IMG/VR virus record: IMGVR_UViG_2711768053_000014 | Location: 1-36,325 of that record | From: a virus | Lineage: Duplodnaviria; Heunggongvirae; Uroviricota; Caudoviricetes | Direction: 5' to 3' (one strand) | DNA: 36,325 bases | Part shown: one piece after another, positions 1,527 through 29,790 of the stretch | How positions within the stretch are numbered: position 1 is the first letter of the stretch | Layout: each line of letters starts with the position of its first letter | Made by a program: the position numbers and the translations under genes | The notes under the pieces: model-generated | Database searches by the model: none | What the model was told of the DNA's origin: nothing | Seen by the model: the letters and a program-made list of their open reading frames with translations, nothing else

Positions 1527-4500
1527 TTACTCGATACGCACAAAAAGACCAATATAGCCACGTTTTGTATCGTGATTACTGCGTGACCCCGAAAGCGCCA
1601 TATAACGACCGGGAAAGTTGTATGCACTGGCACCACCAATTGCCACTTGCGGTGTGGATACGTATGTCCCTGTATCGCTAACTGAAGCACTCATAGCCAG
1701 AGGGCCAAGACGGGAACCCGGCACAATATCACCGAGTCCCAGAGACACATCAGCACCAAAACTTTCCCCCTGATATGCCGCCATAACCGGCACACCAACT
1801 GCCGGATATTTGTAATATGAGCCTGAGCCTGCTGTCCGGGAGAGTAAGAACGCCAGCGAATCGCCGTCGTAAATGACAGGGCTTACTGTTGCATTCCAGT
1901 TGTTTCCACTCCAGCGGTAAGTCAGGCGATGAATGCTGTGTTCGCCTTCGTAATACTGGTTAAAACACAGCAACGTTTTGAATTTACGCGTTGTGTCCGA
2001 TTCATCGTTATCAAAGGGCGACCACATCACATCAATGATGCCGTTAAATTTCGTGGTGCCAGCCAGCAGCGTGGAAGAGTCCGCAATACTGACCGCATAA
2101 CGCCCCGGGGTGGCCTCTTTCAGCCATTCAGCAAAATCAGCCTGTCCGGTAAATGTCAGGGCGTCGGTGCTGGCAAATGCCTGACCGAATCCGTACATGC
2201 CGGACAGTGCCAGTCTGCCCGGCGTGCGGTCGCGGATATCGCTCTGGGGTTCCATCGTAGCAGCCGCTTTCAGTTCAAGCTCCGTGCGCATGGCTTCAGG
2301 TGTGTCCAGTGCCAGTAATGCGCGGGCTTTTTCTGACAACTGCGCCAGTAAAATCCTGCCATCTGCACTGAAATAAGGCAGTGTATTTTCTTCCGGTGTT
2401 ATCTGGCTGACAGCCGTTAACACGTCATTAAGCGGCTGTTTACCTGCCAGTGCATTAGTGACGGTTGTCGCAAAGTTCGGGTCATTGCCCAGTGCCGATG
2501 CCAGCTCGTTCAGTGTGTCCAGGGCTTCCGGTGATGAGCCAACCAGCGCGGCAAGCAGTTTGCGGACAAACTCCGCATTGGCTATTTCATTACCTGCTGC
2601 ATCATCCGGTGGTGTTGGCGTGGACGGCGTTCCGGTCAGTGCCGGGCTGTTCAGTGGCGCGCGGGTTTCAATCAGTGCCCGGAGTGAAGCCTCGTTGACT
2701 TTCAGGTTTTCCCAGCCAACCAGATAACCATCTCCGGTAGTCCAGTAGCGATTGTAATAAATATGGCCGTTAATACCGTAAAAAATAATGATTTTGGCCA
2801 CATATGCCGGATTGGGATTGGGTTGAGATTCCGGCCAGATAATTTCAACGGTACCCTTGAACAGCACGCCCTGTATTACCGCATTTGTATCTGCATAAAC
2901 GGCATAGCGTCCGGGTTTTGCCGTTTTTACCCAGCGGAGAAAATCGGCCTCTGTTTTAAACTCGGTCCTGTCGCCGCTGGAAAATACTTTCCCGAATCCA
3001 AACATGCCGGGAATCGCCAGTCGACCTTCGGTGCGGTCGTAAATATTCTCCTGTGCATCCTTCTGTGCTGCATTGCCAAGTTGTAGCGTCAGATTCGTCC
3101 AGGTGACCGGGGCGGAGATATTATCGCCACGAACGGTCATGAGAATCCGTCCGTCTTTTCCAAAAAACAGAACCAGCTTTGTTGCTGTCTGGCTTGTTTT
3201 GTCGCCCCAGCCATTATCCAGCCAGATAATTTCTGTTATTCCGGTCGTCTCTTCCGTTTGTGTGGAAAAGGTGTAATACCGTCCCGGGTGCAGGTTGTGC
3301 GCAGTTCTGGCTACAGTCGCCATATCGCTGGCAATAATTGAACGCGCTCCGGCGTCCGTCATTCCGTAACCAAATGCACCAGGCAGCGCAACACGGCCTT
3401 CCGAGCTGTCGTAAAGGTCTGTCTGAATGTCCCTTACCGCTGCGCTTTTCAGCTCAAGCTCATTGCGCATGGTTTCCACTGTGGCCTGTGCCAGCAGTGA
3501 CCGGGCTTTTTCTGACAGTGGAGACAGTGAAGCATTTCCGTCCTGATTAAAGCACAGAAGATTATCTGCCCGTTCTTCCAGATTACTGATTGCGGTTAAC
3601 ACGTCACTGAGTGGTTGTTTACCCGCCAGCGCGTTAATGACCGTCGTCGAAAAGTTCGGATCATTGCCCAGCGCAGCTGCCAGCTCGTTCAGTGTGTCCA
3701 GGGTTTCCGGTGACGAGTCAACCAGTGCGGCGAGCAGTTTGCGGACAAATGCCGCGTTCGCTGTTTCCAGACCGGCAGCATCGTCCGGTGGAGTTGGTGT
3801 GGTGGGCGTACCTGTGAACGCCGGACTGTCCAGCGGCGCTTTTGTTTTCGTCTCGTCCATGACGGTTTTAACAGCCTTTGGTGTGGCTGCCAGTTCTTCG
3901 CTGTCGTTGTCTGTATCACTACAGAGTTGCACCAGGCCTTTTTCTGTTGTGGATGCATTGCTTCCCTTCAGGTCATCAACTATCCGTTGCGCCTCGTCCC
4001 TGTGCTGTTTCGCGTTCTGTTCGCTTTTTGCTGCCGCTTCGGCGCTGGCTTTTGCCTCGCCGGTCAGCGTTGCGGCATCAGCAAGTTTATCGACCGCTTT
4101 CTGGACTATCTTATCGGCATCTTTGACCGCCTGTTCTGCCCGGGCGGCATTCTGGTTTGTTTCAGAGGCCAGCTCTTCAGCTTTCTGCACATTACCCGCA
4201 ATTTCTTCTGCATCCTGCCGTATTTCCCCTGCGAGGGTTTCTGTATCCTGGCGGGCCTGTTCAGCAGCGTCCGCGTGCTCTCCGGCTTTTTCTGCGCTTT
4301 GCTGCGCCTGTTGCGCCAGTTCCTCGAATTTCTTCAGGGCTTCCGGGCGCAGGTCAATATCGGTTGCGCCCAGAAAATCATTCAGCGAACCATCCGCTGA
4401 ATCTTCATAAACGCGGATGACACCGATTTCTGAAAGGCGCTGTGTGCTTTGTGTCAGGCGAACGCTGTACACACCCGGCAGAACGGGGAAGTCATATTCC

Positions 4501-16460: not shown

Positions 16461-16894
16461 AGCACCCCTTTCAGGTTGTTACGGGTGAACAGCCGGGCAT
16501 TGGCACCCACCACAATGATTTTCCCGTGGTCGGTTTCTGCCGGGGTGGCATACGTCGGCAGGCCCAGATCACGGGTGCCGTTCGCCATCTCACGCAGGGT
16601 TTTAATGGCGTCGTCGTAGCGTTTCTGGATCAGCTCCGTGATTTGATTGTCACGCTCTGACAACCAGTAAAACGCCAGCGATACCGCCACGCGTTGCAGC
16701 GGGCGCGGGATTTCCGTCACTCCCAGCGGCAGCTGGTAGCGGCGGGACAGAAACGAATCAATTTCCGCTTCGGCATCACTGATGGCCTGACGGATTTTGT
16801 CTTCATCCAGTTCGTTGGTTTCCCGGTTAATCGCCATGTTCCAGACAAGATTGCCGTCCGCGCGTAACAGGTCTTCCTGCGTGATATACCCCAT
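16457..16894 (-). CDS. Head-tail joining protein (Mu gp36-like)
   Basis: 145-aa ORF in the head-tail joining cluster. Confidence 0.55.
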   Translation of the reverse strand: MGYITQEDLLRADGNLVWNMAINRETNELDEDKIRQAISDAEAEIDSFLSRRYQLPLGVTEIPRPLQRVAVSLAFYWLSERDNQITELIQKRYDDAIKTLREMANGTRDLGLPTYATPAETDHGKIIVVGANARLFTRNNLKGVL

Positions 16895-17205
16895 CAGCCT
16901 TTCTCCGTTTCCCGGACAATCAGATTCGGCTCTGCCATCAGGCGGGTGGCAACCGCAGCGGTCACCGCCACATCCTCACCGGCATGTGACCAGAAACGGC
17001 CACAGCGCCAGAACCCGTTTTCAGACACGGCCCGGACGTTAAGCCGGACAGGGGCGTCACCCTGTACAGTAACCGGGTCTTCAGCCGGACGTGGTTCATT
17101 CGCCTGACCGTCAGCCACAATAACGTCTGCCAGCGGTGCCGGGTTTTCCTGTTCAGCGCTGTTCTTTGCGGCTTTCGCGCCTTTGGTTCCTGCTTTTTCA
17201 CTCAT
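16894..17205 (-). CDS. Hypothetical head-associated protein (Mu gp35 position)
   Basis: 103-aa ORF directly downstream of the major head gene, preceded by an 18-bp palindrome. Confidence 0.45.
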   Translation of the reverse strand: MSEKAGTKGAKAAKNSAEQENPAPLADVIVADGQANEPRPAEDPVTVQGDAPVRLNVRAVSENGFWRCGRFWSHAGEDVAVTAAVATRLMAEPNLIVRETEKG

Positions 17206-17286
17206 GACTCTGCCTTTTAAAAGGCAGTTAAAAGGGCATTCACAGCGCCTTTTAACTGCGGGTTACAACAGATTACGGATGACGGG

Positions 17287-18192
17287 TTATGCCGGGGTGG
17301 TGATGTACGGGCTGTCCACGATGTCCACATCCTTGTACCAGATGTTGGAATCGCCGCCGTTAACCAGCATGGCGTCAATAATGAGCTTCGCGTCCGCACG
17401 GTTTTTCGCCCCCACCACAAGGGTGGTCGGGCGGATGCCCAGCGGCTCACCGTTGGTGCCCTTCATGCCCCGCAGCAACTCATTGGCTTTTTTGTAGTTC
17501 TCCACCGTCAGTGCTGCACGGGAACCGACGGCGGTCTGCCAGAAGCCGAAGCCCGCATTACAGCGACCGTCCACGCCGTACAGGAACTCGTGGTTCTTGA
17601 AGGTGTGCTCGCTGTTCAGATCGTCCAGGGCTTCAAATTTAAAGGCGCGTCGCGTCTGCCAGATGATGGGTTTCAGCACCTGCGACTCATCAATCAGAAA
17701 CCACGGTTCGCCCTGGTCCGTTCCTGGTGTACCGACAACGTTGCTGTAGGTGCCGTCGCCCAGCGGGTGGTCTTCATCAAAGAAGTTCTGGCCGTCAAAG
17801 CACAGGGTGTTAAACCCGGCACACAACAGGGCGTAACACAGCTTGTCCGGGAACACAGCAGTCATACGGCCATAGCGTTCGGCGGTAATGCTGTACTGAC
17901 CAATCTGGTCATCTTCAATGTGTTCGCGTTTAACGCGGATCGAACTTTCCCAGAGTTTGTTGGTGATGGTGTAACCATAACCGTCCAGCGTTGCCAGCTG
18001 ACGCTCGCCAACCCATTCTTTGATGTCCGGTAAATCTTTCATCCAGCCGTAGGTGTTGGAGGCGGACGAACTCGGCACCTCAGAAGCAATACGATTCCAC
18101 TGCGGTTCGACACCACTCAGTCCACGGGTAAAGGCGGCGCTCAGGCAGGTGGTCAGTGCATGAAGGATTTCAGAACTGATAGTCTGTGACAT
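17287..18192 (-). CDS. T: Major head (capsid) subunit T
   Basis: 301-aa ORF following the protease/scaffold gene I; size and position match Mu major head protein T. Confidence 0.8.
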   Translation of the reverse strand: MSQTISSEILHALTTCLSAAFTRGLSGVEPQWNRIASEVPSSSASNTYGWMKDLPDIKEWVGERQLATLDGYGYTITNKLWESSIRVKREHIEDDQIGQYSITAERYGRMTAVFPDKLCYALLCAGFNTLCFDGQNFFDEDHPLGDGTYSNVVGTPGTDQGEPWFLIDESQVLKPIIWQTRRAFKFEALDDLNSEHTFKNHEFLYGVDGRCNAGFGFWQTAVGSRAALTVENYKKANELLRGMKGTNGEPLGIRPTTLVVGAKNRADAKLIIDAMLVNGGDSNIWYKDVDIVDSPYITTPA

Positions 18193-21698: not shown

Positions 21699-23230
21699 AG
21701 TAAACCTCCCTCATTTTTCAGGCCGCGCGTCAGCTTCATCTGGCGGCGCGCGTTGCGTTCTTCCGGTTTCGCCGGGCGGTTCAGACGGTGCAGTTCGTAA
21801 CGGTGGCAGTCATCTTTACTGGCAAGGAAGCCCAGGAAAATGGCCACAGCGGCGTCGCCGTGACGTTTGTGACCGTCGCTGCCTTTGGTTCGTGAATCAT
21901 CAATGCCGGGAACGCCACGCAGTAACTGAATGGCCCCGAGGTCATTGATCACGTCTTCATGCTTCGGAAGGATCAACTCATCATCTTCAAACGCCGCACG
22001 GAAACGGGGCATGTTTTCGCGGTAGAACGCCACGGACAGCATCACCTGTTCCACTTCATCGCCGTACCGCTCTGCCGCCTGTTCTGCCAGATACTGACCA
22101 TTCCCCCGCGCATCCATTTTGATACCGTCACGACGGGGCAGACGATCGCAAAGCCAGAAAAGCACCTGCTCCTGCTGTTTAAACGGCACATTGGCAAGCT
22201 CAACCAGGAACGGCACCTCGCGGGTGGTGTCATCGTTCACCGTCACAGGGGCCAGTACGGTCAGGTCACCCGAACGCGCAAAGTCTTCTCCCAGACAGTG
22301 GCGCAGGTTCTTCGGGAGTTTTTCCAGCTCAGGGCGCACCACCGTTTCCAGCCATTCACGGATATCTGCCCGGCGCTGGCTTTCCGTCAGTGCGTTAAAT
22401 TCCGGTGTGCCGGTAAAGCGCAACACTTTTCCGGTGCCGCGGGCCGCACGTTCACGCAGTGAGCGGGGGATATACGTGCCGCCGCCGTTTTTCGGGACGC
22501 AGTAATATTCCTCCAGTGCGTCTTCGCGGGTGGCGGTATTTCGCAGCAGGCCTTCTTTCCATTCCGCCTCGGCTTCCGGTGACCACACCATGCCGCGCAC
22601 CTGACAGATACGTCGGTACAGCCCGTCATTGCAGGCGTCGTCCAGCGTGATGGTGTGAATGCTGTAATCTTTTTTGCCAGCCCGGCTTTCCTGAATCAGC
22701 TGGTTAAACAGGTTGTCCACGCCGTCATGGGTGGAGATAAGGCGAATTTTGCCGCCCCATGTTTTCAGCGGCAGCACAGCCTTCAGCAGTTCGTCCAGTT
22801 TTTCATGGAACGCGGCTTCGTCGATGGTGACATTCCCCTGCATCCCGCGAATGTTGCTCGGGTTGCTGGACAGTGCCTTGACCTTAAAGCCGCTGGCGAA
22901 ATACACGACGAACGTCAGAATGTCCTTGTCTTCGTCGGTGATCACTTCCTCGCAGATTTCTTCCGCTGCCGCATTAAACGCTTTCGCCCACATTGCCACG
23001 GCGTCGATAAATTCGCGGGCCATCTCCTTATTCGAACCGATATAAAAGTGATCGCGTCCGCCGTCTTCCTTCTTCAGTGATGCCGTCAGTGCTGCATCTG
23101 CCGCTTCAGCCCAGGTTAAACCGGTACGGCGGGATTTCTCGGCGATTTTCAGGTCGGCATCATCCGCCACCCAGCGTTTCTGATACGGCAGCAGAACATC
23201 GTATTCACTGAATGTGTTCATCTGTGTCAT
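21695..23230 (-). CDS. Terminase large subunit (Mu gp28-like)
   Basis: 511-aa ORF upstream of the portal gene, coupled to the upstream gp27-like ORF by an ATGA overlap; acidic motifs consistent with terminase nuclease/ATPase. Confidence 0.8.
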   Translation of the reverse strand: MTQMNTFSEYDVLLPYQKRWVADDADLKIAEKSRRTGLTWAEAADAALTASLKKEDGGRDHFYIGSNKEMAREFIDAVAMWAKAFNAAAEEICEEVITDEDKDILTFVVYFASGFKVKALSSNPSNIRGMQGNVTIDEAAFHEKLDELLKAVLPLKTWGGKIRLISTHDGVDNLFNQLIQESRAGKKDYSIHTITLDDACNDGLYRRICQVRGMVWSPEAEAEWKEGLLRNTATREDALEEYYCVPKNGGGTYIPRSLRERAARGTGKVLRFTGTPEFNALTESQRRADIREWLETVVRPELEKLPKNLRHCLGEDFARSGDLTVLAPVTVNDDTTREVPFLVELANVPFKQQEQVLFWLCDRLPRRDGIKMDARGNGQYLAEQAAERYGDEVEQVMLSVAFYRENMPRFRAAFEDDELILPKHEDVINDLGAIQLLRGVPGIDDSRTKGSDGHKRHGDAAVAIFLGFLASKDDCHRYELHRLNRPAKPEERNARRQMKLTRGLKNEGGLL

Positions 23231-23829
23231 GCGCTAATCCCCAGAATTTCACGTTTGATGGTGTCAGCCGCACCACCTGACAGACCGCCCGTTCTGACCA
23301 GTTCTTCGGTTTTCTCTGCCATCTCCTGCGCAAACGCATCGCGGATCGCTTTCTCGCGTTTATGGCTGGTCATGGCTGCCGCTTCCAGACGCTGGGCAAC
23401 CAGCGCCAGTTGGCCCAGCGCCTTCGGTGCAACAGGTTTGTCGTCTTCTGCCATCGACATGGACGTTTCAAAGGCCAGCGTTTTTACAAACTCCATCAGC
23501 AGCTTGCCGACGTCTGACGTCGGCGCGGACCCCAGCTTTGCCGCCCAGACTTCGGCCATTTCGCGGGAGGCGCGGATTTTTGCCCCGACTTTTTCCATGC
23601 GGATGGCGTAGCGGTTTAAGCCCGTCCGGCTTAACTGCATCTCTTCCGGCAGGTTGTGTTCATCAATCAGGGCATTGATGGCTTCGCGGATTTCTTCCTG
23701 CGTGTGCCGCTTTTCCCGCAGCATCTGATGCAACTGCTCCCGGATGCTGTCCGGGAGTAAATCCACTTTGGAAAGACGGCCACGGGTGGGGCGTTGTTCA
23801 TTTTCCATGAGTGCCCTCCTGTTGCTCAC
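23227..23829 (-). CDS. Putative terminase small subunit / DNA-binding protein (Mu gp27-like)
   Basis: 200-aa ORF immediately upstream of and overlapping the large terminase start. Confidence 0.55.
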   Translation of the reverse strand: MSNRRALMENEQRPTRGRLSKVDLLPDSIREQLHQMLREKRHTQEEIREAINALIDEHNLPEEMQLSRTGLNRYAIRMEKVGAKIRASREMAEVWAAKLGSAPTSDVGKLLMEFVKTLAFETSMSMAEDDKPVAPKALGQLALVAQRLEAAAMTSHKREKAIRDAFAQEMAEKTEELVRTGGLSGGAADTIKREILGISA

Positions 23830-23945
23830 TACGCTGTAAACTTTCGTATGCAGATTTCAGCGCGCCACTCTGGATTTCACGCCATGTCAGGTTGTGCGCC
23901 AGACGGCGAAGTTCATCACGGGACGCTTTACTTATCGGATTCTTT

Positions 23946-24245
23946 TTACGGTTCACGACGGCCCCCGTCTTCAGTTCCCGGTGTTTTCAGACCGGCGTAT
24001 ATTTCTTCGCGAACGGAGCGGATATCCTTACCCAGCAGCTTCCACAGCCGCGCACATGCCGGTGATGAACGCAGGGCACGTTTCATGGGGGTATCCGGTG
24101 CATCCGGGTTCCAGGGCTTTCCGGTCTGTTGTTCGTATGCACGGACAATGGCGTTTTGCTCAATATCTGCCAGCACAAGACAGTACGCCAGTTGCCGCAC
24201 GACGGCCCGTTCTCCGCGACTTAACGGCTTCAGTTTTCGGGCCAT
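23946..24245 (-). CDS. Hypothetical protein
   Basis: 99-aa ORF on the gene strand between the lysis and terminase regions; no recognisable motif. Confidence 0.35.
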   Translation of the reverse strand: MARKLKPLSRGERAVVRQLAYCLVLADIEQNAIVRAYEQQTGKPWNPDAPDTPMKRALRSSPACARLWKLLGKDIRSVREEIYAGLKTPGTEDGGRREP

Positions 24246-24247
24246 GC

Positions 24248-24541
24248 TCAGTCCCTCGCACGGGGTTTTTTAACGCCCGGAACGCTGGACAGGCCGTTTG
24301 CCACATCCTCACCGCTGCCGGTGATTTCAGCCACGTAACAGCCGCCCACATCAGACAGACGAACCAGCCCCTGCTCGCGCAGCCATGCAAGCTGGGTGCG
24401 CACCACATCACGGGATACCTTATGACCGTAGGCCTGAAGGCAGGTCTGCAACACGGATTCATTCGCGCTGTCGCCACAGTCCAGCAGGGAACGCAGCAAC
24501 ACAAGACGACGGTCTTCAGTGAGGATCTCTTTCATCGCCAT
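24248..24541 (-). CDS. Hypothetical protein, possible winged-helix fold
   Basis: 97-aa ORF on the gene strand; a competing overlapping ORF (24160..24504) looks spurious. Confidence 0.4.
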   Translation of the reverse strand: MAMKEILTEDRRLVLLRSLLDCGDSANESVLQTCLQAYGHKVSRDVVRTQLAWLREQGLVRLSDVGGCYVAEITGSGEDVANGLSSVPGVKKPRARD

Positions 24542-24846
24542 TATTTTTTTTCCTTTAACTCGTTCTCTAATAACAAATCGCTGATGCGGGATACCTGGCG
24601 GATGGATGGCCCCAGTTCTTTGATTTCTCCCCGCAGGTTGCTGATATCCAGTTGCAGGCGGTGGAACTCATCACGGTCGGGTAAATGGTGTACCTGGCTT
24701 TCCATCACCGACACGCGGGAACGGAGTGAATCAAACTCTTCACGTTTGACGTAGGTTTTCGCCAGAATCAGCTGAAGCAGGTTTATTCCTGTCATCAGCA
24801 ATGCCCACAGAATGGGCCAGTTGGCTCTGATCATTTCCCAGGACAC
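24541..24846 (-). CDS. Membrane-anchored coiled-coil protein, possible i-spanin (Rz-like)
   Basis: N-terminal hydrophobic segment (WPILWALLMTGINLLQLIL) followed by a charged coiled-coil region; lies in the lysis region. Confidence 0.4.
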   Translation of the reverse strand: MSWEMIRANWPILWALLMTGINLLQLILAKTYVKREEFDSLRSRVSVMESQVHHLPDRDEFHRLQLDISNLRGEIKELGPSIRQVSRISDLLLENELKEKK

Positions 24847-25058
24847 GTTTTCCTCCTGCGTTCCCGCATCTGCTGACAGTCAATACAGGTCACCACATCC
24901 GGCAGCGCCGCAAGGCGCTGTGCCGGAATAACGTTCCCGCAGTCATTGCAGAAGCCCCAGCTGTGGGGCGTTTCTTTTGTCCGTGTCTGCCAGGCTTTAA
25001 CGACGCTCTGACGCTCGTTCAGAACCACTTCACTGATGCGATCGATTTCGTCGGTCAT
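24831..25058 (-). CDS. TraR/DksA-family C4 zinc-finger protein
   Basis: 75-aa ORF with CNDCG...(17 aa)...CIDC, the typical spacing of phage TraR-like proteins. Confidence 0.65.
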   Translation of the reverse strand: MTDEIDRISEVVLNERQSVVKAWQTRTKETPHSWGFCNDCGNVIPAQRLAALPDVVTCIDCQQMRERRRKTCPGK

Positions 25059-25813
25059 TTCGGCCCCGCAGACATTTTGTGACGGCTTGATTTGCTGTAA
25101 CGGGCAAAGCCGTCAAGGGTTCTTACACCGAGATAGCCCAGCGCCGGGGTAAGCAACATCAGCGTGATATCCCAGTCCGGTGATGGCATATGCAGCGTGA
25201 TACTTCTGGCACCGGCAATGGCTCCGGCAATCTGGCCGCAGGAGAGCAACAGCACATAGGCCAGACTGCTGTAACAGGAAAGGCGGGCCAGCAGCGGGCG
25301 TGTCTGGCGCACATAGCTGTCCGTGGCGTTGTCACCATTGCGGATGGTTTCCTGCTGTTCGTGGTGTGCGGCCTGCTGGTCAGCCAGCACCAGCTTCTGC
25401 CGTTCCACCTCCAGCTGTTGCAGCTGAACTTTCAGGGTTTCCAGTTGCACCAGTTGCTCCGGTGACAGCATCACCAGTTTTTGTTCCAGAATGCGTTGCT
25501 GTTCAGCAACGGGAAGGCTTTCCCGGACGCTTTCCACCATACCGGCCACCGAGTCAGCGGCGGCAGATGTACTGCCACCAAACCAGCGCCCGACGGAACG
25601 AATCAGCCCCGGCCCGGCTTTCAGCAGAACAGAGGCGATGCCTGAAAGGGTTAACGGATCCACGGGAAACCTCCATACAGATAACGCTGAAGACAGAGCA
25701 GACCGCCGCAACTGCCACCACACAGCCAGAACACCGGATGCACCGGTGACATCATCATCAGCGTGCTGAAGACGCAGCAGAAATACCCCAGCGCCCAGAC
25801 CACCCATGACCAC
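25055..25813 (-). CDS. Membrane protein, possible holin/lysis-associated (start uncertain)
   Basis: ORF track 25055..25813; the N-terminal part overlaps the upstream membrane ORF, so the real start is probably internal (~25663 alt start or Met at ~25540); coiled-coil middle and two C-terminal hydrophobic segments. Confidence 0.4.
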   Translation of the reverse strand: MVMGGLGAGVFLLRLQHADDDVTGASGVLAVWWQLRRSALSSALSVWRFPVDPLTLSGIASVLLKAGPGLIRSVGRWFGGSTSAAADSVAGMVESVRESLPVAEQQRILEQKLVMLSPEQLVQLETLKVQLQQLEVERQKLVLADQQAAHHEQQETIRNGDNATDSYVRQTRPLLARLSCYSSLAYVLLLSCGQIAGAIAGARSITLHMPSPDWDITLMLLTPALGYLGVRTLDGFARYSKSSRHKMSAGPK

Positions 25814-26076
25814 ACGATGATGTGGCGACCAAAAGCCCGGTAACGGACCTCAGGCAGCAGGCGAAATGGCACATTCCCGAGGCTTGCGCTGTATGAAAAC
25901 AACACCACCCCGGCAAAGGACAACAACATCAATACGAACGATCGCCAGCCACATAACATGCTGATGATGAATATGCAGAGTGTCAGTCCGGCCAGCGGCC
26001 ATGGCGTTCTCATCAGTCGGGAACAAATCAGCCAGTCACACAGTTTTAAAATTTTGTTCATTACCTTTTTCCACAT
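25651..26076 (-). CDS. Multi-pass membrane protein, possible holin
   Basis: ORF track 25651..26247; from the internal Mets (26076/26061) it encodes ~135-140 aa with about four hydrophobic helices; downstream of the endolysin. Confidence 0.45.
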   Translation of the reverse strand: MWKKVMNKILKLCDWLICSRLMRTPWPLAGLTLCIFIISMLCGWRSFVLMLLSFAGVVLFSYSASLGNVPFRLLPEVRYRAFGRHIIVWSWVVWALGYFCCVFSTLMMMSPVHPVFWLCGGSCGGLLCLQRYLYGGFPWIR

Positions 26077-26287
26077 TGAATTTTTCCCTGTACTTCTGGC
26101 ACTGCCAGAAAATGTCCCGTGTATCCACGGAGTTCCAGCCACGCATGTAGTAGCTGGCGTGTGTGCCGTCATGGCCGGTATAGTCCAGCGGTTTCGGGGG
26201 CGGGCCTCCGGCCATGCGGTGCAGAACCTCCTGACGCAGGCGGTCACGCCGCCCGGCTTTCAGTGAGGCATCCCAGCCTTTGCCCAT
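26036..26287 (-). CDS. Small hypothetical protein downstream of endolysin
   Basis: 83-aa ORF starting 2 nt after the endolysin stop; no recognisable motif. Confidence 0.3.
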   Translation of the reverse strand: MGKGWDASLKAGRRDRLRQEVLHRMAGGPPPKPLDYTGHDGTHASYYMRGWNSVDTRDIFWQCQKYREKFNVEKGNEQNFKTV

Positions 26288-26288
26288 A

Positions 26289-26885
26289 TCACCCCCGCGT
26301 GGCGGACATGATGCCCAGAGGGGTATCGATGATTTCCAGACAGGCGTCGGTCAGTTTTTCCATGCGGTTAAACCAGCCGTTCAGGTATTTACCCTGGGCG
26401 GGTTTTGACTTGATGATGTCGGCATAAAAGCGGGAACGACGGACAATGCAGCGGGCCAGCAACCAGTCCGGGGTGGACAGACTCACGGCCTTACGGGTAC
26501 GCGGGCCGATGATGCCGTCAGCATCCACATCAGCGGCTTCCTGCAAAATTCTGATGGCTTTTTTAACGCCATGCTGAACCGCTGCATCGAAAACAAACAT
26601 CGCCACGCCATCAGGCCACTGGTCACATCCGGCAGGCAGCCAGTAATCGCGCCAGTAAATCTGCGCGACCTGTTCGCGGGTTAAATCTTTGATGCGGGTA
26701 TCCGGTTTGCCGTCACCGTTGACATCGGTTTTGCCGTCAATCACACCGTCGCGGCGGTCAGAAATGCCGTATTTGGTTTCGCCGCCACGGTCAGTGGGGT
26801 CATTGACATAGACGCCTTCGATATCAGGACGCAGAATGAAATTCAGCGCATGTTCAAAGGCCGGGGAGAATTTTTGATTTTCCAT
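26289..26885 (-). CDS. Endolysin, GH108-type muramidase with PG-binding domain
   Basis: N-terminal motif ...PDIEGVYVNDPTDRGGETKYGIS... resembles the GH108 EGGY...PGGxT.YGI signature and the C-terminal ...DADGIIGPRTRKAV... resembles a peptidoglycan-binding domain (from memory); no signal peptide or SAR segment. Confidence 0.75.
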   Translation of the reverse strand: MENQKFSPAFEHALNFILRPDIEGVYVNDPTDRGGETKYGISDRRDGVIDGKTDVNGDGKPDTRIKDLTREQVAQIYWRDYWLPAGCDQWPDGVAMFVFDAAVQHGVKKAIRILQEAADVDADGIIGPRTRKAVSLSTPDWLLARCIVRRSRFYADIIKSKPAQGKYLNGWFNRMEKLTDACLEIIDTPLGIMSATRG

Positions 26886-26940
26886 AAAAGCACCTGTGAA
26901 GCAGATTTAAACGTGGTCTGCTTCATGGTGCCGGAGGCAT

Positions 26941-26968
26941 AAAAAAAGCCGGATTTACCGGCTTCATT
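26941..26968 (-). terminator. Rho-independent terminator-like hairpin (minus strand) after the mor operon
   Basis: Plus strand AAAAAAAGCCGGATTTACCGGCTTCA, identical to the element at ~19205..19230; on the minus strand a stem-loop followed by U7, about 20 nt past the stop of the 26987..27484 ORF. Confidence 0.6.
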
Positions 26969-26986
26969 GAATATCAGGTTATTGAC

Positions 26987-27484
26987 TCAGTTAACTTTAC
27001 GGGCAGAACATGTAGTCTTCATTACTGAACGTTCAATTTTTATCTTCCAGCCATTTACTGTTTTTTCGACAGGATCATCTTCAGCTTGCTTTAAATTTTC
27101 AACTTGCATGAAATTCAGTGGGGCTGGGGTATCATCGTCCCATGATGTCGGACGAACATAATCAGGGACAACAAAAGGCTCAAAAACAGTTTCACATAAA
27201 GCAGACGTCATTTGAGCAAACTCGTCGCTATCGGGGCGAACCGGTCCTGTAACATACTGCATTTTTATGTTGATTTCGTTATCTCGCACAGACGCCTTTA
27301 AATCCTGATATACACCTAAGTTAAATCCTTTAAACTCAGCAATGGCAGCGTCACCTTTACCGTACCAGTCGGTATAGTCAACGGATGTTTTTTTCTGAAA
27401 AACATCTTTGACTTTTTGCTGGAATGTATCCGCCGCTTGTACAGTAGTAACAGTTAGTAGAAGAATAAGGGGAAGATATTTCAT
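26987..27484 (-). CDS. Secreted (signal-peptide) protein of unknown function in the position of Mu late activator C
   Basis: 165-aa ORF; N-terminus MKYLPLILLLTVTTVQA|AD is a classical Sec signal peptide with an AxA site; start overlaps the mor stop (translational coupling); followed by a terminator hairpin; no similarity to the Mor/C family. Confidence 0.6.
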   Translation of the reverse strand: MKYLPLILLLTVTTVQAADTFQQKVKDVFQKKTSVDYTDWYGKGDAAIAEFKGFNLGVYQDLKASVRDNEINIKMQYVTGPVRPDSDEFAQMTSALCETVFEPFVVPDYVRPTSWDDDTPAPLNFMQVENLKQAEDDPVEKTVNGWKIKIERSVMKTTCSARKVN

Positions 27485-27882
27485 TGTTCGTCCTTAAATA
27501 GTTGCATTTGATATTTTCCACGCTCCAGTCGGCGCATTCTTTTGATGGCCTGATATACCGTTTTGTATGTCACTTTGTAACGCTGCACCAGCTCCGCTAC
27601 GTTTTTCCCATCAAAATCACGCCAGATGCGCATGTCTCTGATAAGATTTTCCAGTATTTTCCCTTTCGGAACATATACCTGAATCCCACCGATATGATTG
27701 CAAATCGCCACTACCAGCTCAAGAGAGTGGGCAGGGTTAACTCCAAGCCTTATCAGCTCCTGTCGCAACAGAGCATTCAGCTCAGCCAGTAAAGATGGAA
27801 ATCCCGATTTTTCCTGAATATCATCAAAATATTCAAGGATACTGTCGTCCTGATAATCACCAAATAAATCCTGCTCTTTCAT
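27481..27882 (-). CDS. mor: Mor/C-family transcriptional activator (middle operon regulator-like)
   Basis: 133-aa ORF; ...DLFGDYQDD...FPSLLAELNALLRQELIRLGVNPAHSLELVVAICNHIGGIQVYVP...VTYKTVYQAIKRMRR resembles Mu Mor as I recall it; located right after gemA as in Mu. Confidence 0.8.
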   Translation of the reverse strand: MKEQDLFGDYQDDSILEYFDDIQEKSGFPSLLAELNALLRQELIRLGVNPAHSLELVVAICNHIGGIQVYVPKGKILENLIRDMRIWRDFDGKNVAELVQRYKVTYKTVYQAIKRMRRLERGKYQMQLFKDEQ

Positions 27883-28430: not shown

Positions 28431-28743
28431 TATGTCCCCCGGATTTAAAAATTAACTCAGTGTTGAATAACTCCTTACTCATTCGCTGTAACACATCAAG
28501 GGCGGCAACTGCCGCCACTTTATCCTGACCGGCAATGATTTTTCGTAATTCCTCTATAATCCAGGCAGGGCTTAATGATTCAGCAATCATCGTGCGCTTC
28601 TCTGAAATTAAATTTTCTCTGGCCTGCTCATAGTGTTGGTATACGACATTATCCAGAAAATCATTTACCTTTTGTTCTGACATGCCACTGGAAATTAAGG
28701 TTGCAGCCATTAAATCAGAATCAGTAATCATCTGTATTTTCAT
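28408..28743 (-). CDS. Hypothetical early protein
   Basis: 111-aa ORF in the semi-essential early region between gam and gemA. Confidence 0.4.
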   Translation of the reverse strand: MKIQMITDSDLMAATLISSGMSEQKVNDFLDNVVYQHYEQARENLISEKRTMIAESLSPAWIIEELRKIIAGQDKVAAVAALDVLQRMSKELFNTELIFKSGGHNEPHIPD

Positions 28744-29116
28744 CTCTTAATACCTTTTCAGGATTCAGGAAAACTGCGCCGGTAACCTCCAGCAGATTCA
28801 CCAGAGCATGGGTCGCAATTGCTGCGGCCAGGCAATCACCGTTGTAGCAGACATTGTCGATAACGCTTTTTATTATTCTTATCAGCGATGGCAGTGTGGT
28901 GTTTTCCAGAATTTCCAGCCTGAACTGCTTCAGCCAGTATTCATATTCAGCTTCATCAAATGGAAGCTCACCCATCAGTTCTGTCAGAGTTGTATCGGCC
29001 TGCTCCGGTGTATATCCACTGACAACCAGTTGCGCCCGCATTTCAGCCCGATATTTAGGGTCGTCATAAATATGCTTACTCATTTCGTAATACCTCTTCG
29101 CAATAAAAGATTTCAC
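28721..29116 (-). CDS. Hypothetical early protein
   Basis: 131-aa ORF (alternative start codon per track) in the early region. Confidence 0.4.
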   Translation of the reverse strand: MKSFIAKRYYEMSKHIYDDPKYRAEMRAQLVVSGYTPEQADTTLTELMGELPFDEAEYEYWLKQFRLEILENTTLPSLIRIIKSVIDNVCYNGDCLAAAIATHALVNLLEVTGAVFLNPEKVLRDENTDDY

Positions 29117-29258
29117 TGGGATAACGTTTTTGTATGCGCTCCATCACCTGCATACATGCCTGCTCTGTGGGCCAGATTTTTTCCGTTACCGGAATGGCAT
29201 CGCAGGCATCATTCCCACAAGTGCCAACCAGCAGGACAAAGCCAGTTGACTTAATCAT
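29076..29258 (-). CDS. Small Cys-rich hypothetical early protein
   Basis: ORF track 29076..29354; the internal Met at 29258 follows the upstream stop and gives ~60 aa with several Cys (possible metal-binding). Confidence 0.35.
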   Translation of the reverse strand: MIKSTGFVLLVGTCGNDACDAIPVTEKIWPTEQACMQVMERIQKRYPSEIFYCEEVLRNE

Positions 29259-29790
29259 GCTCGCTGACATCCTGTGTTGCCGCCGGAACCGCTGAATAAT
29301 CAAGAATGAGATAGCGCAGGACGTGGGCGGTGATATTCCAGCCACTGGAGCCACAAATAAAACGTCCCAGTCGGATATCGATATATGCCATCACAAAACG
29401 GGGCATTCCCTGTTTGCACATCTCGTCATCCACTTCAGCAACGATGTAAACCGACTCGCAGGTCAGTACGCCTGTCGCAAATTCTTTTGCCAGTGCCGGA
29501 ATGGCATTGCCTTCCAGCCAGGGCAAAGAGCGGCGGAACGTGCACCATTGAGCATCATCAACAGCGGGGTGCTCCGTTGCGTTTCGTCTTACTGGCGGCG
29601 TCGGACGAGGGCGCGGAACGTCATAAAATCCGTTGCATTCAGTGAGAACTCCGGCATCAACCGCATCACGCAGGAAATACACCATTGACGAGGGAGGCAT
29701 CTTCATTTTTTCAGCCAGAACGCCACAGGTCAGACGTCCGTAAGCCCGTAATAATGTACTGACACCGTTCAGAACTTTTGCATCAACCAT
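29251..29790 (-). CDS. Hypothetical early protein with possible N-terminal winged-helix domain
   Basis: 179-aa ORF immediately downstream of gam in the early operon. Confidence 0.45.
   Translation of the reverse strand: MVDAKVLNGVSTLLRAYGRLTCGVLAEKMKMPPSSMVYFLRDAVDAGVLTECNGFYDVPRPRPTPPVRRNATEHPAVDDAQWCTFRRSLPWLEGNAIPALAKEFATGVLTCESVYIVAEVDDEMCKQGMPRFVMAYIDIRLGRFICGSSGWNITAHVLRYLILDYSAVPAATQDVSEHD

Follow-up and report, generated by a model that had tools for sequence, protein, structure and literature searches.

How does a Mu-like phage leave its host when its endolysin carries no export signal? Phage Mu lyses without a holin; its DUF2730 protein gp25, the "releasin" that founded the family, frees an endolysin of the signal-anchor-release (SAR) type (Chamblee et al., 2022; PMC9239132). 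The question is raised by a 36,325-nt stretch of DNA, the IMG/VR virus record IMGVR_UViG_2711768053_000014, which was analyzed over its full length and is referred to here as the window. At 36.3 kb, the window is an essentially complete Mu-like transposable prophage with its genes read on the minus strand. A first-pass annotation, made from the letters alone, had described in it a swapped-in lysis module, with a GH108-type endolysin lacking a SAR anchor, several small membrane open reading frames (ORFs), and a TraR-like zinc finger; all of the ORFs that it named exist on the minus strand. We think it probable, with considerable room for doubt, that this region is the canonical holin-endolysin lysis operon of a complete Mu-like prophage, unlike the holin-less SAR-endolysin/releasin system of Mu. 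The reading is built on sequence comparison and structure prediction, and its candidate holin is a membrane protein of 202 amino acids (aa).

The cassette runs in the order mor, secreted 165-aa protein, terminator, GH108 endolysin, gp18-like protein, protein with four transmembrane (TM) segments, 202-aa protein, TraR finger, DUF2730 protein, gp26-like protein, two small ORFs, and gp27 (Table 1). Neighboring genes overlap by 1–26 nt. These tight overlaps, a strong Shine-Dalgarno sequence ahead of the 202-aa gene, and the terminator upstream of the endolysin together fit a single late operon.

Table 1. Positions of the lysis-region features in the window, listed in cassette order
Feature	Position	Strand	Remarks
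Secreted 165-aa protein gene	26987-27484	-	Cleavable-type signal peptide (N-terminal hydrophobic segment); between Mor and endolysin; AT-rich, variable
Intrinsic-terminator-like hairpin	26945-26965	-	GAAGCCGG-taaa-TCCGGCTTT, then T run TTTTATGCC; directly after the 165-aa gene
Perfect 8-bp inverted repeat	26898-26924		GAAGCAGA-N11-TCTGCTTC; between terminator and endolysin start codon, directly upstream of the endolysin ribosome-binding site
Soluble (cytoplasmic) endolysin, 198 aa	26289-26885	-	GH108 N-acetylmuramidase domain and PG_binding_3
Mu gp18 (E18) homologue, 83-aa soluble protein	26036-26287	-	Directly after endolysin
Four-TM inner-membrane protein, 136 aa	25651-26061	-	Mu gp19 position; PGAP-type start; ORF open back to 26247
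Three-helix membrane protein, 202 aa	25055-25663	-	TeaA/GTA_holin_3TM-like; best holin candidate
TraR/DksA C4 zinc finger, 75 aa	24831-25058	-	Mu gp24 position
DUF2730 protein (Mu gp25 "releasin" family), 101 aa	24541-24846	-	N-terminal transmembrane domain and coiled coil
Winged-helix protein, Mu gp26 homologue (VpaChn25_0724 family), 97 aa	24248-24541	-	Backbone gene bounding the cassette downstream
Two small ORFs, 99 aa and 52 aa	23798-24245	-	Between gp26 and gp27 homologues; insertion relative to Mu

A signal-less endolysin and a candidate holin

The endolysin matched Pfam Glyco_hydro_108 (PF05838; 1e-23, 84.1 bits against a cutoff of 21.2) over residues 22–106 and PG_binding_3 (PF09374; 3e-17, 63 bits against a cutoff of 24.6) over residues 110–175, at its C terminus. 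It also matched phrog_315 "endolysin" (1.7e-54) and NF040573, holin-associated muramidase (1.5e-20, below the equivalog cutoff), and it aligned to the GH108 structure NMB1012 (PDB: 2ikb; 5.7e-20). The EG(G)Y...DxGGETxxGI motif is intact (iEGvYvNDPtDrGGETkyGIs compared with hEGGYaNhPkDpGGETnwGIt in NMB1012), including its Glu, which we take to be the catalytic residue of the GH108 family. Relative to NMB1012, residues ~48–60 form a 12-residue Asp/Gly-rich insertion, DGKTDVNGDGKPD, reminiscent of a loop that binds calcium; Klebsiella Kp4866-3 shares it, and the Vibrio and Shewanella homologues lack it.

The N terminus is charged, with a longest uncharged run of 7 in the first 45 residues versus 17 in Mu gp22, and the GH108 domain begins at about residue 10–22, with no SAR-type segment ahead of it. 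An in-frame TAA stands seven codons 5' of the ATG, and the interval contains no start codon; at the level of sequence, this rules out a hidden N-terminal extension with a cryptic signal or SAR segment. As judged from its sequence, the protein is a GH108 plus PG_binding_3 muramidase without a signal or SAR segment; with no export signal, it must therefore accumulate in the cytoplasm. The first-pass annotation had thus read both domains and the missing signal correctly, and its contrast with the signal-anchored endolysin of Mu holds (PMC9239132).

Among the membrane proteins encoded beside this endolysin, the 202-aa coiled-coil protein is the strongest candidate for a holin. Its gene has a GTG start six bases after GGAGG, within an ORF that stays open back to 25813. 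At the N terminus of the protein, a Gly/Ala-rich helix of weak hydrophobicity carries an FGG hinge; a long helical stretch follows, and a TM hairpin forms the C-terminal part. Just before that hairpin, the family alignment has an invariant TIRxGD...YVRxTRP motif. Large word-index protein searches returned only close enterobacterial and Vibrio "hypothetical proteins" with no Pfam labels; the breadth of the family came from an exhaustive profile search of representative sequences, which gave 190 clusters at 50% identity, mostly of 170–200 aa. Among 96 sampled relatives, 42 matched PF11351 (GTA_holin_3TM) at E ≤ 0.01 and 14 scored at about the gathering level (best, 4.7e-10), and no other Pfam family was matched at the E ≤ 0.01 level. 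One relative matched phrog_3427 "holin" at 1e-4.

Structure prediction and profile comparison point the same way. An AlphaFold2 model made from the family alignment had a confidence score (pLDDT) of 90.7, with all three segments helical. The closest BFVD model to it (31% identity, E 1.7e-7) is named "Holin of 3TMs, for gene-transfer release." Searching PDB sequences with the profile of the family brought up no significant match. By hhalign, the family aligned collinearly over 141 columns with ORF137 of phage ICP1 (81% probability, E 1.2e-5), which is taken to be TeaA. ICP1 TeaA is an experimentally supported holin, for which its authors relied on remote-homology tools (PMC7182436).

The genomic neighborhood of the family is that of a lysis gene. 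Homologues lie directly after an endolysin gene or one to two small genes away (two genes intervene in the window), and an endolysin neighbor is nearly always present, the exception being one sampled contig with none. The enzymes beside them belong to at least five types: GH108, Peptidase_M15_4, CwlK-type LD-endopeptidase, amidase-like, and DUF5675. On one metagenomic Mu-like contig, the set is reduced to Mor, GH108, a homologue of the 202-aa protein, and DUF2730, so the latter two are its sole membrane proteins.

The likely topology was derived from hydropathy and charge. On the Kyte-Doolittle (KD) scale, TM2 is clear (1.74), TM3 scores 1.75 but is short (15 residues), and the first transmembrane domain (TMD1) scores 1.33 and contains Lys15. 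With charges of +5 in the C-terminal tail and +2 before TM2, the positive-inside rule gives N-out/C-in. The predicted protein would have an external N terminus, a cytoplasmic helical domain of ~100 residues, a periplasmic loop of ~11 residues, and a cytoplasmic tail.

Several observations weigh against a holin assignment. TMD1 is weakly hydrophobic and TM3 is short. The window protein itself scored 19.2 bits against PF11351, below the gathering cutoff of 24.8 (E 0.0018), and ICP1 ORF137 gave no match to the same family by hmmscan; the link to a tested holin is therefore profile-profile and fold evidence of moderate strength. Other annotated holins occur beside some relatives ("holin protein III" in Donnerlittchen and Phage_holin_3_3 on one metagenomic contig), and given these co-occurring holins, the family could be an accessory or regulator rather than the hole-former. 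No outer-membrane component was found in the window, which leaves the pathway incomplete. Because the threshold test failed, the protein was not filed as a PF11351 member at the Pfam level; the sequence and model comparisons above place it as distantly related to the GTA/TeaA holin family and make it the best candidate for a holin in the cassette.

The orthologue in the E. coli E300082 prophage (2196–2804 of its locus; 95% identical) carries the name "twin-arginine translocase TatA/TatE family subunit" from the Prokaryotic Genome Annotation Pipeline (PGAP), and a resemblance to TatA can indeed be seen in the N-terminal helix, the FGG hinge, and the amphipathic helix. The label was not adopted, since NCBIfam gave no match on the window protein.

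Membrane partners, spanins, and rival readings

In the lysis pathway that we favor, the late operon would begin after the terminator and inverted repeat, and the GH108 enzyme would build up in the cytoplasm. The 202-aa protein would insert N-out/C-in, with its weak TMD1, cytoplasmic helical domain, and C-terminal TM hairpin, and accumulate in the inner membrane until it triggers holes through which the muramidase reaches the murein, as family and context suggest. By analogy with ICP1 ArrA and Mu gp25, the four-TM and DUF2730 proteins may tune the timing, and what is known of their families would make the TraR finger and the gp26-like winged-helix protein regulators or packaging-side genes. The gp18 homologue, four-TM protein, TraR finger, and DUF2730 protein are Mu backbone genes that probably tune timing or expression and do not execute lysis.

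The four-TM protein has four hydrophobic segments and matches phrog_12596; nothing was found for it in Pfam, NCBIfam, or PADLOC, and tblastn gave no phage match. The BLAST alignment with Mu gp19 covers just 22 aa (ISxxCGWR; E 0.011), and the PHROG of the window protein, 12596, is not that of gp19, 4975. They have in common a four-TM layout, a CGWR turn between TM1 and TM2, and the slot after gp18. We regard the window protein as a positional analogue of gp19, as far as these comparisons go, and do not claim homology. Between the window and the E300082 prophage (copy at 2792–3202 of its locus), its amino acid identity is 40%, compared with 95%–99% for the endolysin, 202-aa, and DUF2730 proteins. 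Such hypervariability points to replacement of the gene as a cassette or to diversifying selection, the pattern expected of a specificity, antiholin, or exclusion protein, and makes the four-TM protein a candidate antiholin or lysis/exclusion modulator. A second in-frame ATG lies at 26076, five codons upstream (MWKKVM...), and the longer form would add two N-terminal lysines; the dual starts recall lambda S107/S105 and are not conserved in the Klebsiella copy.

The DUF2730 protein matches PF10805 over residues 4–98 of 101 (1.3e-30, 105.9 bits against a cutoff of 24.9). It is 26% identical to Mu gp25 (E 3e-10), and the alignment groups it with the Vibrio, Shewanella, and Klebsiella type. Its TMD spans residues 11–29 (KD 1.84) and is followed by a flank, KTYVKRE..., with a net charge of +2; because this charge distribution gives N-out/C-in, the coiled coil is predicted to be cytoplasmic. 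Its gene is the fifth after the endolysin, within the five-gene distance used in PMC9239132. By profile match, the protein is a DUF2730 member, yet it does not qualify as a releasin as understood for Mu; the name was withheld because the partner endolysin has no SAR domain. The role of DUF2730 beside non-SAR endolysins was stated to be unknown by Chamblee et al. (2022; PMC9239132).

The first-pass annotation had taken the DUF2730 protein for a possible inner-membrane spanin (i-spanin), which its family membership and predicted cytoplasmic coil rule out. It is the only coiled-coil protein with an N-terminal TMD in the cassette, and no i-spanin with a periplasmic coil was found there. The annotation had also, rightly, proposed a search for an embedded outer-membrane spanin (o-spanin) ORF with a lipobox. 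Lipobox scans, relaxed and stricter, took in all ATG, GTG, and TTG ORFs of at least 22 aa, first at 23200–27600 and then on both strands of the whole window; no lipoprotein spanin came out as a credible candidate. A 38/52-aa alternate-frame ORF at 25758–25916 was set aside for its poor lipobox (TSSC) and 17-residue mature part. The only minus-strand lipobox match, at an internal in-frame GTG (25312) of the 202-aa gene, was rejected too, as its Cys is not conserved in Klebsiella. The Rz-like profile phrog_214 matches Mu gp23 and none of the window proteins. Outer-membrane disruption may depend on an unrecognized factor or on shear or osmotic rupture. The view of the earlier annotation that neither holin nor spanin is obvious from the sequence was well founded.

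It is unlikely that the roles of the two membrane proteins are reversed relative to ICP1 TeaA/ArrA, with the four-TM protein, alone or together with DUF2730, as the holin and the 202-aa protein as an antiholin or timing regulator. The four-TM gene does belong to the late lysis operon, holins usually have antiholins as neighbors, some 202-aa relatives coexist with a separately annotated holin, and Mu gp19 (four TM segments) and gp20 were proposed as a holin/antiholin pair by Samanta et al. (as cited in PMC9239132). However, the two Mu proteins showed no holin behavior and are dispensable for lysis (PMC9239132), and the homology of the window protein to gp19 is unproven. The gene is also absent from the Vibrio and Shewanella cassettes and from the minimal metagenomic one, all of which have a signal-less GH108 enzyme and a 202-aa homologue, and 40% identity amid prophages that otherwise agree at 95%–99% fits a specificity factor or modulator better than an essential effector.

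We consider it very unlikely that the cassette is decayed and non-functional in this prophage. Prophages often decay, and in the closest E. coli match, the prophage of strain ETEC1732, PGAP marks two tail/baseplate genes as frameshifted, yet the cassette ORFs are intact and conserved (amino acid identities of 92%–100% in ETEC1732 and 29%–76% in a Klebsiella phage), their starts are translationally coupled, and the same layout occurs in plaque-forming Vibrio phages. Least probable of all is a 202-aa protein that replaces the spanins at the outer membrane or envelope while another protein makes the inner-membrane lesion. Position would favor it: the gene lies between the endolysin side and gp24/gp25, which is the slot of Mu gp23/gp23.1; in Donnerlittchen, the order holin, endolysin, 202-aa homologue puts the protein in the usual spanin slot; and there is no spanin elsewhere in the window. 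Against this, a protein with the predicted cytoplasmic helical domain and a periplasmic loop of only ~11 residues is unable to reach across the periplasm, a lipobox is missing from it, its relatives are holin families, and the Rz-like phrog_214 finds its match in Mu gp23 and in no window protein. The 202-aa protein as the holin of a soluble endolysin remains the reading that we prefer.

Mu backbone genes, the upstream slot, and the prophage

The list of small ORFs downstream of the endolysin in the first-pass annotation was correct for the ORFs that it named, among them the ~4-TM protein, the coiled-coil membrane protein, and the TraR/DksA C4 zinc finger, all present as described; it missed the 83-aa gp18 homologue. 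Over 72 aa, this protein has 69% identity with Mu gp18 (E 6e-37), and both match positions 3–85 of phrog_2121, with further matches in Muvirus, Shewanella, and Pseudoalteromonas. PGAP calls the gene in related E. coli prophages, and the gp18 family also lies directly 3' of the endolysin in Vibrio and Shewanella Mu-like phages. As with the four-TM protein, searches of Pfam, NCBIfam, and PADLOC found nothing for it. The phrog_2121 profile is 284 positions long, with the gp18-like protein at 3–85 and the 202-aa family at 89–273. Its span implies that gp18 and holin-like proteins are fused or read through in some phages and hints, at the profile level, at a functional link. The gp18-like and 202-aa-type genes overlap by 16–19 nt in the phages of Vibrio and Shewanella.

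The zinc finger matched PF01258 (1.7e-10, 41.1 bits against a cutoff of 24.9) and TIGR02419 (62.0 bits against 59.7). By inspection, its CxxC-x17-CxxC pattern (CNDC...CIDC) has the same spacing as in Mu gp24, to which it gave no significant alignment. It is probably, by its family, an RNA-polymerase-binding regulator and not a lysis effector. The winged-helix protein is 61% identical to Mu gp26 (E 2.6e-41) and scored 122 bits against the NF050184 cutoff of 65. Beyond it, the 99-aa ORF is conserved in E. coli and 34% identical in Klebsiella, and the 52-aa ORF is annotated in some genomes only; neither matched a family in Pfam, NCBIfam, or PADLOC.

At the other end of the cassette, the slot between Mor and the endolysin is filled, in all of the related Mu-like phages examined, by a gene whose product is secreted or is a lipoprotein. 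The 165-aa protein of the window is 23% identical to its E. coli E300082 counterpart and matched no family in Pfam, PHROG, or NCBIfam; a ZorB/MotB match in PADLOC (E 0.0023) was taken as noise. The Vibrio 1.028.O counterpart has a similar C terminus (NGW...C...N). The hairpin downstream of its gene, as read from its stem and T run, is probably the end of the upstream (middle) transcript before the lysis/late operon. The inverted repeat that follows occurs once in the window and did not turn up in 100 shuffles. It may serve as an operator (for example, for a Mor/C-type activator) or as a 5' untranslated-region hairpin of the late lysis operon; the element has only one activator of the Mor/C family.

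A 4.7-kb query around the cassette matched 53 of 5,426 complete E. coli genomes (~1%). The ETEC1732 prophage, 97% identical, interrupts flhA. Its PGAP annotation lists a repressor-side helix-turn-helix protein, transposase, AAA ATPase (B), Gam, gp16/GemA, and Mor before the cassette region, and a DUF3486 small terminase (gp27), large terminase, DUF935, head/tail/baseplate genes, and Com/Mom after it. Judged by that annotation, hallmarks of transposable phages are present in the element: a transposase, GemA, Mor, and a portal-type DUF935 protein. In the ETEC1732 prophage locus, at 25078–25472 and 28644–29715, PGAP marks tail-assembly and one baseplate-assembly gene as frameshifted. The former is probably the usual programmed tail-chaperone frameshift, and the latter may be a sign of decay. 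All of the cassette ORFs are intact in the window, and the lower range of identities given above came from an isolated Klebsiella phage genome. No near-identical isolated phage turned up when the phage collection was searched by megablast; the relatives came from protein searches and E. coli genomes.

Relation to known lysis systems

Mu has the order mor, gp18, gp19, gp20, C, lys (SAR), gp23/23.1 (spanins), gp24, gp25, gp26, gp27. The window shares the backbone and its order, with identities of 69% for gp18, 26% for gp25, 61% for gp26, and 47% for gp27, a four-TM gene after gp18, and a zinc finger in the gp24 slot. Mu lysis relies on a SAR muramidase, gp22, with the "true lysozyme" motif E-X8-D-X5-T (PMC9239132), on no holin, and on the Rz/Rz1-type spanins gp23/gp23.1. 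In the window, by contrast, a signal-less GH108 endolysin of a different family is placed upstream of gp18, the 202-aa TeaA/GTA-holin-like gene stands where Mu has Rz/Rz1 (gp23/gp23.1), and C, gp20, and the spanins are missing. The suggestion of a swapped-in lysis module is therefore only partly borne out: the endolysin, the 202-aa gene, and the losses of C, gp20, Rz, and Rz1 do differ from Mu, but the gp18, gp19-position, TraR, DUF2730, and gp26 genes are Mu backbone in Mu order. With a gp18 homologue present and everything from TraR onward collinear with Mu gp24-gp27, the region is mostly Mu backbone and was not swapped in.

The same cassette order (Mor, secreted protein, endolysin, gp18-like protein, TM/coiled-coil protein of ~200 aa, TraR finger, DUF2730 protein, winged-helix protein, and small terminase, TerS) is found in Mu-like phages of Vibrio and Shewanella (1.028.O and relatives, vB-Vv-ZX4290, and Shewanella vB_SspM_MuM16-2), of which the Vibrio phages with this layout are plaque-forming. 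In ZX4290, the endolysin is replaced by a DUF5675 protein. The 202-aa protein is 40%–42% identical to the Vibrio and Shewanella counterparts by tblastn and 40%–46% in a MAFFT alignment, and the DUF2730 proteins, too, share one type. In enterobacteria (E. coli and Klebsiella Kp4866-3), the cassette has an additional four-TM gene between the gp18-like and 202-aa genes and additional small ORFs before TerS. The pairing of GH108/PG_binding_3 with DUF2730 is listed for nine Vibrio Mu-like phages, 1.028.O and eight others, in Table S1 of Chamblee et al. (2022); the paper on Shewanella MuM16-2 (PMC8541194) makes no mention of its lysis genes. The layout is therefore not peculiar to this element. It is standard for a whole branch of Mu-like phages and already catalogued in marine Vibrio phages, and the window cassette is its E. 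coli representative.

More distant parallels lie in the PF11351 systems, RcGTA rcc00556 with endolysin rcc00555 and ICP1 TeaA/ArrA. Their architecture is that of the 202-aa protein: a hydrophobic helix at the N terminus that carries an FGG hinge, then a helical region, then two TM segments at the C terminus. As in the window, the gene lies in a lysis cluster with a GH108-type "holin-associated muramidase" (in the window, the enzyme matching NF040573). rcc00556 reportedly has holin activity. The window protein differs in scoring below the Pfam cutoff, and its TIRxGD...YVRxTRP motif is not evident in ICP1 ORF137. The ICP1 lysis-control locus (16725–18097, ORF137-ORF139) has the same three architectures as the cassette: TeaA-like ORF137 (182 aa), its multi-TM neighbor ORF138 (ICP1 has a multi-TM antiholin, ArrA, beside TeaA), and ORF139 (114 aa), a coiled-coil protein with an N-terminal TMD that is DUF2730-like in layout only. 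No similarity was found between the four-TM protein and ORF138 or between the DUF2730 protein and ORF139, and a Pfam scan of ORF137-ORF139 gave neither PF11351 nor DUF2730, so apart from the hhalign link for ORF137, the parallel is architectural. Lambda-type class I cassettes resemble the window in having a soluble endolysin that depends on a predicted three-TMD N-out/C-in protein and clustered, translationally coupled late-operon genes. They differ in that there is no sequence relationship, the window holin candidate is about twice as long with its ~100-residue cytoplasmic helical domain, and the window has no Rz/Rz1 or u-spanin.

A further idea concerns DUF2730 itself, which in this branch of Mu-like phages could act on the SAR-like, Gly/Ala-rich, weak TMD1 of a TeaA/GTA-type holin and not on the endolysin. 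A releasin would then be a general membrane-exit or rearrangement factor for weak N-terminal TMDs, and the holin-less state of Mu would be derived, the activity having moved to the endolysin. We regard this as distinctly unlikely. If it were true, E. coli lysis here would be spanin-less, with an unrecognized outer-membrane disruptor among the conserved small proteins, and the gp18 homologue and the hypervariable four-TM protein would be holin-specific timing or exclusion regulators.

For a prophage carried by ~1% of complete E. coli genomes, much of this work is routine annotation refinement, and its wider interest lies in two questions. The prophage is a natural E. coli example of DUF2730 beside a SAR-less endolysin, the class that Chamblee et al. 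(2022) flagged as unexplained. In a tractable host, and with Mu as a well-studied reference phage, it offers a setting in which to ask what role DUF2730 plays when no SAR endolysin is present and by what means a coliphage lacking spanins gets through the outer membrane.

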